A DNA stretch of 64,000 nt from Promethearchaeota archaeon (GCA_030599585.1 JAUVNS010000002.1:320001-384000), one strand, 5' to 3'. Counted from the first letter of the stretch, positions 52,201-58,200 are shown. Notes: generated by a model from the letters alone, not told the origin. A program made the numbers and translations.

Positions 52201-55200
52201 CTACGAGATATTCGTCGTTGTCTAAGATTGCCCCTCTTAAAACTAGCTGATCTCCGTATTCCAATTCAAATTGTTCGTTTTCGAGGTAAATTGGGTTCGT
52301 ATTCGACAAAGTTTCTTGGGTAATGTTAATTGTTAGCATAGGCGCTTCTACAAAGGTTATGTTGAACAGTGGAGTTCCAAGAGAACCAAAAGAGAAGTCA
52401 AACTCTCCTAAAATGTTAGGTAAGCTAAATTTTGAGGAATAAAATTTGGTTAAATATCCAGATTCAGCGTCTCTATCGTATTTTGTTATCCAATAGGCGT
52501 TAGCAAAATTGAGTAGGTTTCCTGAACTGTGATTGGTGAGACTTACTGGTAGTTTATATATGTCGTTAAGAGGGATTTGAGAGAGAGAATTGTTCCAACG
52601 GTAATGCAAAGCGATATCGTCAGAAAATTCTACTTCGATATTAGATTCGTTTTCGAAGTAAACATTATTAGCAAACATTTTAACGTCGGTAAATTCAATG
52701 TTTAACCTTTTAATCATAAATTCGGTATCAGCGAAACAATCGTAATAGTCAGGGGCAACAAATCGAACCGTGGAGTTAACAAATCCTTCGTCGTCGGAAA
52801 GGATAGAATCGGAAATAGCGTTGTATAACTTAAGGTCAGTAATTCCTACTCTTTGATATGGAAGGTTTAACACCGAAAATTCTTCGAACTCTTGTACGAA
52901 CGAGCCTGGCCATCTAGGAGAATCTTTAATTTCAAATGTTATGGATTCTAACAAACTCAAACCAAACTTTTCGTTAAGATTTGAGAAAGCTAGCTCGTTA
53001 ATATCTATATATAACGGAATATTCATCATCTTCCCTAAACCGAACACATCTGTCTCGTATTGAGCTTTAACGCTATCTAAAAAGTATTTTCTTAAATCGA
53101 GGTCGAAAAACACTTTCGAAAAGGAATTTCCCATGAAATCGTTAAAATTAATAGTAAGTTTTTCTATAGTGGTGTGATCGTAATACACTGCCGGCATGGT
53201 AAAGTTAATGAAGAAACCGTCAGCGTCTATCAAGGAAAGTGAGTCTCCTACCAAAGAAGCGTCGTATTCGAAATGAATTAAATTGTTTTTTACTTCGCTT
53301 GGATCGGCGTATAAATCGTGTAATATAGAACTTTCAGGGAAAAACATTATTCCCTCTCTATCAACTATAAAGTCGTATCCGTACGATAAAGAAATAATTT
53401 CCTCGCTAGTAGAATTTACGAAATGTGCGCTTTTCATCCTGGCAAAATCTACTAAGCCGAACCCTCGCTCGTAAAGAAGAGTTATGTCTAATTGTCTAGT
53501 TCTATTAAGCGTTAAAGGATTTATTATGACGATATCGCTATCGACTAATACGTGCTTGACAACCCCAAACATGTCGTCTTCTCGAACTTCCCAGCTAATG
53601 TGATTAAGAGGGTTCAAGTTGGAATAAATATAATCGGTCATTAAGGAATCGGAATACGCGAGTAAAGTATCTTTAGAGTTTGTAGTTCCAAAATCGAACT
53701 CGTAATTATTGCTTCCTAAGTGAACCGCTTGAGTTCCGTATAGAAAACCGTTGATATAAACATCGACCAAGCTAGCCCCGCCAAAATTGGCGTTAAACGA
53801 TAAGGTTCTTTCTGAAAGAGTAGCGCTATTTAAGTCTATATTGTCGTCGCTCAAAGCAACGGATCTTTCTTTTGAATACAAAATAAACCTATAACCACCG
53901 TTGTAGTAGGAAGTTATATTTTCGTTTCCTGCCGGATCGACTACTTTAAATTCTACGCTAAAATTACTTGGAAGTTCGCCAAAATCGGCTAGTTCTGTAA
54001 TAAGGGTTGAGTTAAATTGCGTCCACGGACCTTCGATACCTCTGGTGAGGTCGATAACGCGATACTCGTTTACAACAGGGAACATCTCGTCTGAGGTAAG
54101 CGTAATCAAAGTGTATGGATCTGCAGTAACAATCTCATAGTTTTGAATACCGTCTCCAACGCTAAGGTTCAATTGAGGATAGACGAAATCTGCTAACAAT
54201 TCATACGTAACTTCTCCGGTATTATCTAAGATATCGGTCGGTTTAAACACGATGTAAATTACTTCTCCGTTACACGCCCCCGTAGTTGCTTTGATGTTTT
54301 CCCAGGTGTATTCAAACATAGTTGGATCGAACATATCCTGAACCATTTCAGCGATATATTGATTCGATCCGCCTTCGAGGTAATAATACATAGAAACGTT
54401 AGTAACTTCGTTATCGCCGACAAACACAAAATCTTGATTCATACCAACGTAAAATTCGAATATTTCGCATTGGTAATCCAGAGTTAGTTGATCGATTAAC
54501 AATTGGAATTCCGAAGTGATTTCTGGCGTCTGGAATCTAATTCTTACGTGATTCGTTTCGTTAATGAAATCGTCTGATAAAGGATAAGATTCGGCGTTAA
54601 AACCTACGTTATTTGTAACGCTTTCAATCTCGTGCCACCCTGGTTGCGTAAAATTGTAAATGTCGAGATCTACGTCTACTGCCAAGGTGGTCATGTGGGA
54701 ATAGAGCAAATTCTGAATTGTGTAGAAAGTTTCGTCAGTTATATCCCAGACGATTTCGGTGTCCACGGAATAAAGCGGTTCTCTAGTGGAATATTCAGCT
54801 TTTAATACATCTATCTCCAAATCGAAAGGAGTCTGTTCCAATTCTGCGGTAGTATAGCGAACTTTTACGTTATTAGTGCCGGTCTCGCGATAATCTGGAT
54901 TAGAAAGATCAAATTGTTGTAGGAAAAATCCAACAGAATTGGTAGATACGTTTACAGGAGTCGGATCCCAATCGTTCAAGTTGAAGTCCCAAATTTCCAA
55001 AGTACATAGAATATCTTCCGTAGTTTTATGGGCATAAGTTAAATAATCGTAATCGGTAATCTCTAACGCACTCGTGATGTCCCAGATAGCTTCTAAGCTT
55101 ACCGAATACCAATCGTGTTGTTCTTCGTAATCCACTCTTAATTGATCGATCTGTAAATCGAAAGGAGTGTCTTGAATTCCCGTAATGTAGCGAACTTTTA

Positions 55201-58200
55201 CTCCATCGGTCACGCTCACGTATTCCGGCGAAGAAATTAAATCAAGAGATGATCCAGTCTTTGATTCAAATCGAGGTACTGACTCGTACCAATCCCAGAC
55301 TTCAAACGTTACGGCTACCGGAGCAGAATGGTCGAAATAGAGGGTTTCCATCGAGAAAGCGTCTGCGGTTTCCCATTCTACAATAGAGTCCACCCAATAA
55401 TTATGTATGGTCTTCGTGTATCTAAGGCATAACTGATCGATGTCCAGAGTAAAATCGGTAGAAGAAGAAGCTACGTAGCGCACTTTAACTTCATCTCCAT
55501 CTATGTAATCAGGTGTAATCGTAAAAGGGCTTGCGGTGGTGATTTCTTCCCAGTCCCACACCGGGTCTAGCCATTTCCAGATGTAAAACGAATCGCCGGG
55601 GGGCGAACTATGGACAAAGTATAATTTGTCGATAGTGTATAGATCTAGATCTTCAACTTGCCACGTGACCTCCACTTCCACGTCGTAATTTGGTACTAAG
55701 TTTGAGTAACTTAAATATAATTTATCTATGTTAATGTTGAAATCTGAAGTAAAAGTACTCGTTTGAAACCACAACTCAACTTCGCCATTAGCGTTGATAT
55801 ATGTGTCTGACAAGGTCCAACTACCACTAACCCACGCAGTGGTCGTGTTAGTCGCAACAGTTGTCCATCCGGAATCCGAATTGATTCTCAAGGTATTTAA
55901 TATCGCAGAACTCGTCTGATAGTCGAATATTAACGAGTCTATCGAGTCTAAATCTACATCAGAGATGTCCCAAGTCACCTTCCAATCGTGTAGATAATTA
56001 ACCGTTTGAGTCTTGTAATATACGGCCACATATACGGTCTCAATATCAAGCCAGACCTCGTCGCCTGTTGGCATAAGGTAATAAGGGATGACATCAATAT
56101 ACAAGTTATTTAACGACGTTTGCGATAAAGTTAAACCGGTTGTACTATCAGATTCCCAGGTATATACTCCATTACCACCTCCATAATAACCAGAAACTCC
56201 AACGTTAGAAGTCATTTTGATAACTGTTCTTGGCTCGTTAGATGTTTCGCGCATACAATATATATACACAATTAATCTCGATGCTATTGAATTGGCTGGG
56301 AGAGTTATATCTCCAAAACTCCATCTGTCGCGAGCATTAGTAGCACTTTCTCGAATATTGCCACCATCTCCATTGTTATCGGGATATTCGTCAAGATAAA
56401 GATTATGATCTGCTGAATCATCTCCTTCGTTCCAATTACCGTATAATTCACCGTCAGGTTTTATGTAACCGAGATATGTTTCTGTGCCGTAAGAAGTATA
56501 GGAATCGGCGCTCACGACAACCGTTGTACCGCCGTCAACTAACAAATCGCCAGGAGTTATCCCTGTACCGTAAGGACTGAAAGCGAAGTCGCCCCATTGC
56601 GCTGGAGCCTCTTTATACCCTCCTTGAGCAACGGTGTTGTTTTTTGCGCTTATGGTTGAATTGGTATCATCTGGACTTAATAAATCGCCGTACGAAAGCT
56701 GTCCTTGAATGACATCAAATTCTCCAGAGGAAGGAGCGTCGTAATTATTTCCGTCGTATGTTGCTTGGTAGCCGGCAGAAATCGTGGTATGCTCGCTATC
56801 GACGGTATGATCGTAACGTAGACCGTATTCGTTGTAAGTGCCCCACCCACCTTTAGTGAAAGAGAAAGAGTTTATATCTGGAGTGTTAAAGTAGGCCGGA
56901 TAAGTAGTAGAAGTAATTGAAGACGAAATAGATGTGTAGCCGCTTCCCAAGTTTAATAAATCTCCATAGTTTACTGACGGATTAAAATCGCCAGATTGGG
57001 GAGCAGTATCTTCGTTATAATAATTATAGTTTGATATCGAAGATTGAACGGTAGAGTAATTGCCATCAAACTCTTTCAAATCTTCTTGGTCAAACGCGAA
57101 ATCTTGAGGTTGATCGGGAGCGGTAGTATTTTGACCGTAGTACGATCCGTCAGAGAAATCGTAAGGATAGGTCATCCATCCAAGCGGCGAAACAAACCTT
57201 AAAATCGCGTCCGTGTATTCTTGATCGAGCAATATGTCAAAATTACCTGCTTGAGAATCGGTAAAGTTGTAGTAAAGGTTTTGTCTGAGCATTAACCTTT
57301 GTCGAGTGTCAGCGTTTCGTAAGAACCCTCTAAAAATACCGATATCTAGGATCTCGTCGTCGTCTAACACCGTTAAACCGCTCGAGGAATTGACGTAATT
57401 TGGCGCGTAAATTGCAGTTAACTCGAAAGGAACTTCGGGTTCGGAAGCGGAAATTCTTTTCACTTCGTACGATGTGTAGGACGCGGAAAGATCGTAGTTA
57501 ATTAAGTTTAAAACCGCAAGTATTTCAAGCTTTGAATTGCTTCCTAAGTTCATCTCGATAATACAATTCCAATCGAATTCTACTTTAGCTCTTACGAAGT
57601 ATTTATCGTTTTCTAGGTCGAAATAAAGCAACCTATCGATTTCTGCTCTCGACAAGGTAACGGAGTTGTCTTCCAATTCAATTAACTCCCACTCTAAATA
57701 TTCGTTCCTTGCGTAAAAGTTGTAGTTTTCTTCCAAAAGGGCGTATTGCGAAAAGATAAAAGCGTCGTCAAATTCTATTTCGCCTTCAAAATTCAGGTCA
57801 AGAGTAATTTCTTCGAGATAGACCGACGGATCGGCAAAATATTCGGAAAGATCGACGTCAAAAGTTACTTCAGGATTTATTTTGTGTTCGGTGTTTGGGG
57901 TAGAATAATAAATACTAGCGTTAATTTCGGTAATATCAAAGCCTAATTTTGAAACGAAACAATCTCCAACTTCTTCTTCTATTGTAAATATAATTTTTGC
58001 TTCAAATTGACCCGAAATTGTGTCGTTAAAGTAATTTTCAAAGGTAATAAAGTTTCTATCTACCACGTAGGAAAAAGTATTAGTTCCGCTATAATCGTCG
58101 TAGGTGACAAAATCTACTTGATCCCACTTGTCTTCGATAAAATTAAACATGTAGACGTTTAATAGAGAAGCATCTTTTTCTTCTTCGCTGAGCACCAGCC

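Follow-up and report, generated by a model that had tools for sequence, protein, structure and literature searches.

What arrangement of one polypeptide chain would place five copies of a short repeat ahead of a single domain and exactly five copies of a longer repeat behind it? This question is raised by a block of about 890 amino acids within a giant protein, encoded on the minus strand of a 64,000-nucleotide stretch of DNA from a Promethearchaeota archaeon (GCA_030599585.1, JAUVNS010000002.1:320001-384000), hereafter called the window. The block comprises, in order, five N pieces of about 40 amino acids, a tip of 162 amino acids, and five C pieces of about 100 amino acids. An earlier interpretation of this DNA, the sequence-only reading, had proposed that five domains are inserted one inside another around the tip. 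The analysis reported here makes it very probable that the block is a set of five concentric, self-nested jelly-roll domains surrounding the tip, carried as a side arm on the giant protein. Below, a ring denotes one N piece (the leading piece) together with its proposed partner C piece (the body).

Layout of the block and its host site

The N segments have their onsets at 57127, 57010, 56890, 56743 and 56614 on the minus strand, and the five closing ID.L motifs of the C pieces are at 55729, 55441, 55150, 54814 and 54496. The features, with proposed ring partners, are as follows:

57158..57493 (-): host backbone segment, upstream half; in 20 related giants nothing separates it from the downstream half
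57017..57133 (-): N1, leading piece of ring 1 (outermost); partner C5 by covariation, although the AlphaFold model puts N1 on C4
56897..57016 (-): N2, leading piece of ring 2; partner C4; in the orthologous L045 nest, N2 0.32 and C4 0.48; model confidence low
56750..56896 (-): N3, leading piece of ring 3; partner C3 by covariation
56621..56749 (-): N4, leading piece of ring 4; partner C2 by covariation
56495..56620 (-): N5, leading piece of ring 5 (innermost); partner C1 by superposition on model range 175-481 and by covariation
56009..56494 (-): tip, self-contained 162-residue jelly roll; model range 224-378 compared with CBM36; commonest of at least nine insert clusters
55697..56008 (-): C1, body of ring 5; motif and model superposition
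55409..55696 (-): C2, body of ring 4; motif and covariation
55118..55408 (-): C3, body of ring 3; motif and covariation
54782..55117 (-): C4, body of ring 2; motif and covariation
54473..54781 (-): C5, body of ring 1; motif, covariation and hidden Markov model (HMM)
54074..54451 (-): host backbone segment, downstream half; same comparison with related giants
62080..62530 (-): weak candidate for a distant copy of the module, probably uninterrupted; match to the C part only
37277..64000 (-): giant gene, 3' two-thirds in the window; full open reading frame (ORF) G000:C24:357277-398853

HMMs trained on homologues scored N1-N5 at 16-35 bits and C1-C5 at 53-99 bits, against maxima for reversed-sequence decoys of about 6 bits for the N models and 11 bits for the C models. 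The layout of five, one and five, all within one frame, was thus borne out at the positions originally proposed. Misassembly was ruled out, because the repeats are too diverged from one another (mutual DNA identity of just 35-46%) and because one contig, possibly from the same source sample, spans 53500-57043 with zero differences.

Comparison with other giant proteins showed, at the level of sequence, that the block is a clean insertion and hence a side branch on the backbone, since its flanks are directly joined, leaving the site empty, in 20 of 24 giants (the paralogue on contig C23 and 19 others). This agrees with the earlier proposal of domains entering the same loop to form a side branch. 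The occupied sites contain one ring in L059, one in L060, four in L045 and five here, so that the N:C counts at the orthologous site are 0:0, 1:1, 4:4 and 5:5. Nests of two, four, six and seven rings were found elsewhere, and the larger of these were also balanced (6:6 and 7:7), as would be expected from the one-to-one covariation of N and C that had been predicted. The single rings of L059 and L060 hold different tips, and the four-ring nest of L045 carries a DUF2341 tip and extra side inserts. These inserts (residues 4184-5838) lie within one N piece and two C pieces and are repeat-rich and propeller-like by eye; their positions suggest that the ring has several permissive loops.

Domain structure, tips and register of the rings

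Homologue searches yielded 52 proteins and many genomic loci, in which 83 junctions between an N piece and the next C piece were examined; 11 were empty and 72 contained an insert. Clear uninterrupted copies were located in the homologues. One natural uninterrupted copy, modelled with 71 alignment rows, was predicted to be one jelly roll with a predicted local distance difference test score (pLDDT) of 97.8 and a predicted template modelling score (pTM) of 0.90, and all 138 of its residues superposed on jelly rolls of the carbohydrate-binding module (CBM) type (Z 8.0-9.2, root-mean-square deviation (rmsd) 3.2-3.8). In the AlphaFold model of the 892-residue block (pLDDT 84, pTM 0.45), single domains of 120-150 amino acids superposed on residues 175-481 with an rmsd of 3-4 A, skipping the tip. 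Because single domains align across this whole range, N5 and C1 are modelled as one domain from which the tip is looped out. The tip itself (model residues 224-378) formed a separate jelly roll, best matched by CBM36 (Z 10.4, rmsd 3.0, 117 residues aligned), and secondary-structure strings from DSSP had long strands crossing the N/N and C/C junctions. Taken as structure predictions, these results showed that one N piece plus one C piece make a single domain, as had been proposed, and they support an innermost ring of N5 and C1 enclosing the tip. An aspartate is conserved in each of the two pieces.

According to these models, the ring is a domain of about 140 amino acids with a galactose-binding or CBM-like jelly-roll fold, belonging to an unnamed family. 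Sequence searches of Pfam, NCBIfam (E up to 0.1) and the PDB gave no match for ring or tip, and an Atlas search returned only unnamed look-alikes. The ring fold resembles CBM4/16/22/29/61/86 and the phage phi812 baseplate chain 9euf_H, and the tip resembles CBM36/6/35. Identity to the named CBM families is 4-13% with no profile match, and the middling Z scores indicate a common fold, not a common function. Although both are jelly rolls, ring and tip had no sequence homology by hhalign (0.4%). The sequence-only reading had also pointed to a contiguous copy at about 62530-62080. Its C part gave a distant match (hhalign probability 28%, E 6e-4, about 16 bits), weakly in line with that claim, and its N part fell below HMM detection.

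The junction inserts form at least nine sequence clusters, among them DUF2341, LamG and DUF4082-like domains, and this comparison showed that the predicted tips are exchangeable at the innermost junction. Nesting may also be compounded. In P0008, the tip of an outer four-ring nest is split and encloses a unit of two rings that bears a tip itself; the tip family is splittable about 20 residues in and hosts another two-ring nest in P0008, P0006 and P0028. A fork is produced in P0008 where a C piece carries a tip in its first loop. In a codon-use check for recent import, GC content at third codon positions was 0.30 for the window's tip and 0.38 +/- 0.05 in gene blocks. A relative from another study (X5) has about 87% identity in the outer rings and less than 85% over the 1,264 bases of 55469-56733, which hold the tip and the inner rings; this hints at quicker change toward the tip, perhaps as a threshold effect.

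How the four outer rings pair was addressed by comparing N-likeness and C-likeness to the window's pieces. Among 57 non-redundant single-ring units with unambiguous pairing, concentric pairing ranked 1 of 120 and parallel pairing 59, and N and C co-varied with a Mantel rho of 0.48; the units are related to one another, so these figures overstate their independence. Across 42 rings in 13 nests, the similarity of N and C gave a rho of 0.29 for concentric and 0.05 for parallel order, and one of 3000 shuffles reached 0.29. Concentric pairing of the outer rings is therefore supported by covariation.

Several observations weigh against this arrangement. Within the window nest alone the concentric order ranked 9 of 120, and it was not always the top order within single nests. 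The full AlphaFold model placed N1 on C4 (model range 4-788 aligned with a single target domain) and extruded residues 57-97, the N2 region, at pLDDT below 50, with the low overall pTM given above. Of the concentric contacts that AlphaFold had been expected to reveal, only those of N5 with C1 were thus recovered, and the outer register was not. The N1-on-C4 slip is probably an artefact of the alignment fed to the model, because N2 was covered by zero rows and four-ring homologues had been stretched from N1 to C4. A complex prediction of N1N2 with C4C5 (0.29 against a mark of 0.32) was given no weight, and a genafpair alignment was discarded as it scrambled the rings. In an automatic count, 24 of 49 complete clusters were unbalanced, nearly all with surplus C pieces; many of these carry degenerate leading pieces, and a surplus of C is the expected outcome where the short N motif degenerates. 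The DNA of P0019, finally, contains N and C runs for which a mirrored history was looked for and not found (concentric rank 563 of 720). Its seven-ring nest (residues 94-1245, locus L012) has six near-identical rings in a 2,343-residue protein with a C-terminal membrane anchor.

These points bear on two other explanations of the block. If the outer register were shifted or loose, N1 would complete C4, N2 would be looped out, and C5 would be unpaired or would borrow from the backbone, which is what the best AlphaFold model depicts and which would suit N2, shorter and more degenerate than the other N pieces. The same N2 is, however, the part uncovered by any alignment row in that model, and one-ring homologues at this site have host on either side. 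N1-like N pieces go with C5-like bodies (r 0.53), a swap of partners between N1 and N2 ranks 7 of 120, and the L045 counterparts of N2 and C4 are at bracket-matched positions; a shifted register is accordingly judged improbable. Still less credible, to the point of being nearly dismissed, is a pair of independent tandem arrays, in which the C pieces would be complete domains, the N pieces a flexible or solenoid linker, and the count of 5:5 due to chance. The N and C runs of P0019 do look duplicated separately, and the surplus C pieces of the automatic count would fit, but N plus C is one domain in the models, relatives filled at this same site carry as many N as C pieces, single units covary as described, and the remaining 25 clusters of the automatic count are balanced, where shuffling gave 10 on average and 21 at most. 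The symmetry had been held to be hard to explain by tandem repetition; the equal counts speak against independent arrays, and tandem duplication may still have been a mode of growth, as in P0019.

Proposed role, assembly and known counterparts

The most likely role of five self-nested rings around a tip is to display an adhesion or recognition domain that can be exchanged. The same architecture might instead act as a spacer, a shield or a multivalent array, with binding done by the rings and no special part for the tip. Tipless, empty rings exist, rings and tip have the same CBM-like fold, and the empty site in most giants means that the arm is dispensable. The filling of 72 of 83 innermost junctions, including by lectin-type families such as LamG, and the split-domain logic of RTX adhesins, which fits tip display (PMC12077191), make this alternative the less likely one, though it is a serious rival.

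The sequences showed that the jelly roll of about 140 amino acids, split at a permissive junction after residue 42 or so, takes up other domains or its own copy. Five rounds of insertion would give the order N1-N2-N3-N4-N5-tip-C1-C2-C3-C4-C5, with the concentric domains N5+C1, N4+C2, N3+C3, N2+C4 and N1+C5 in a row. The two ends of a ring would be adjacent and the split would lie at a hairpin on the opposite side, so each ring may hang from the previous one by outgoing and returning antiparallel strands; suspended in this way, five rings would make an arm holding the tip off the backbone. The block would be seated in a backbone loop, with the arm's length set by the number of rings and its end formed by an exchangeable jelly-roll tip, and the arm is expected to be elongated by a few nanometres per ring. 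The two-stranded stalk of the sequence-only reading would accordingly survive as an arm but not as a thin rod, being presumably a chain of globular domains with two linking strands each. Folding may proceed from the tip outward, following export. Structures of CBMs contain a structural calcium site, and a calcium clamp might be made by the conserved N-piece Asp together with the one in the ID.L strand. The tip may bind glycans or other surfaces, judging by its fold likeness to CBM36 and CBM6.

Growth could have followed two routes, namely self-insertion of an entire unit, as in P0008, and amplification of the N run and the C run each on its own, with selection holding their counts equal, as in P0019. 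It is tentatively suggested, at somewhat less than even confidence, that the block is a plug-in display arm of tunable length, that giants add, lengthen (0-7 rings), branch and re-tip such arms at many sites, that selection equalizes N and C even under separate amplification, and that folding zips outward from the tip over up to about 890 residues.

Comparable arrangements have been described elsewhere. Si3 of the cyanobacterial RNA polymerase beta-prime subunit arose by recursive domain insertion (PMC10895346), with six levels (PMC13114784). Like the block, Si3 is built from one family inserted into its own copies, and the result is an elongated appendage whose domains are discontinuous except at the end, where they are continuous. 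Si3, however, consists of sandwich-barrel hybrid motifs in the beta-prime trigger loop of a cytoplasmic enzyme, whereas the block is built from CBM-type jelly rolls in a 13,858-residue membrane-anchored protein, differs in depth between relatives, with 0 to 5 rings at one site, and has exchangeable tips. In RTX adhesins such as AhLap, split domains project binding domains (PMC12077191), and the likeness is that the host domain is interrupted and a second domain emerges from it; their hosts are immunoglobulin (Ig)-like or beta-roll domains of differing families, mostly of one level and secreted by the type I system, and five-fold self-nesting is undescribed in that account. In the pilus tip adhesins RrgA and GBS104, the non-contiguous D1 and D2 fold back together and the inserted D3 is at the tip (PMC7893114). 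These have two levels, Ig-like folds, a vWA tip and sortase pili, in contrast to the jelly-roll hosts found here. The block thus works like Si3 and the split-domain adhesins yet belongs to none of them, as fold and host differ.

In the literature covered, which was incomplete, no description of nested domains in Asgard giant proteins was found. Such nesting is rare, and its principle is already known from other proteins, recursive insertion being exemplified mainly by Si3. Notable here are the unnamed domain family, the depth of 0-5 at one site and the swappable tips. The natural series of 0, 1, 4 and 5 rings at one site, with up to 7 elsewhere, is suited to studying the growth and shrinkage of recursive insertion, and the ring may be viewed as a scaffold tolerant of large inserts. 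The block also accounts for part of the anatomy of the unannotated Lokiarchaeia proteins of 10,000-20,000 amino acids as branched single chains, which sequential domain annotation overlooks. It poses a folding puzzle, since leading pieces await partners up to about 890 residues away. No new chemistry is revealed.

The giant gene and its genomic neighbourhood

The host gene is a single minus-strand open frame that runs past the window edge. Read on the genome contig, the full-length ORF has 13,858 codons from stop to stop, and the same Promethearchaeia (Lokiarchaeia) genome contains three giants of 13,858-14,552 codons each; frames of 9,000-20,619 codons are frequent among genomes of the class (for example, on G125:C13). 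The N-terminal end of the giant has about six hydrophobic, putative membrane segments, followed by about 11,000 residues that are acidic and rich in sequons. Based on these membrane segments, acidity and sequons, the nested block is probably outside the cell. The other end of the protein (window 37277-39750) consists of hydrophobic Ala/Gly-rich segments and a basic tail of about 800 amino acids, the latter without a significant match in Pfam or NCBIfam. The gene is directly followed by a leucine-rich repeat (LRR) gene (36338-37198, minus strand), and the succession of basic tail and LRR gene resembles putative polymorphic toxin/immunity pairs.

A tRNA-His gene (36133-36201, minus strand) lies 1.1 kb downstream of the giant gene; no tRNA gene was called beside the two paralogue giants. 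Upstream (G000:C24:399-409 kb) are a gene for a 608-residue surface-type protein, helix-turn-helix (HTH) genes and a ParB-like (ParB_N) gene. No AAA_31 (ParA/MinD) match was found on C24, which ends 10.4 kb upstream. These upstream genes recur beside the giant on C23, at 43-99% identity. This setting, with the tRNA-His, LRR, HTH and ParB-like genes, suggests that the locus is an integrated mobile element. Aloposons of Heimdallarchaeum have tandem giant genes for proteins of 3,000-6,000 amino acids, a tRNA integration site downstream of them, and four genes upstream that include a MinD/ParA ATPase (PMC8813620). This locus resembles them in being an Asgard giant gene that is closely followed by a tRNA gene and preceded by genes like those of mobile elements, but here there is one gene for 13,858 residues instead of tandem genes, and domain nesting does not figure in the passages on aloposons that were covered.

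Matches to the ring-plus-tip profile occurred in 42 of the 161 genomes searched, and G352, from another Asgard family, had a strong match in a frame of 11,809 amino acids. No relative was found among viral contigs. In L146, L148 and L012 the module occurs in proteins of 1,600-2,700 amino acids on gene-dense contigs, with an integrase gene or a gene for a CPBP/Rce1-like protease nearby; these contigs are possibly Asgard mobile elements or viruses. Elsewhere in the genome that encodes the giant, at G000:C32:162447-177850, adjacent ORFs of 2,643 and 2,483 codons have starts that, by eye, we take to resemble genes of the Tc-toxin type.

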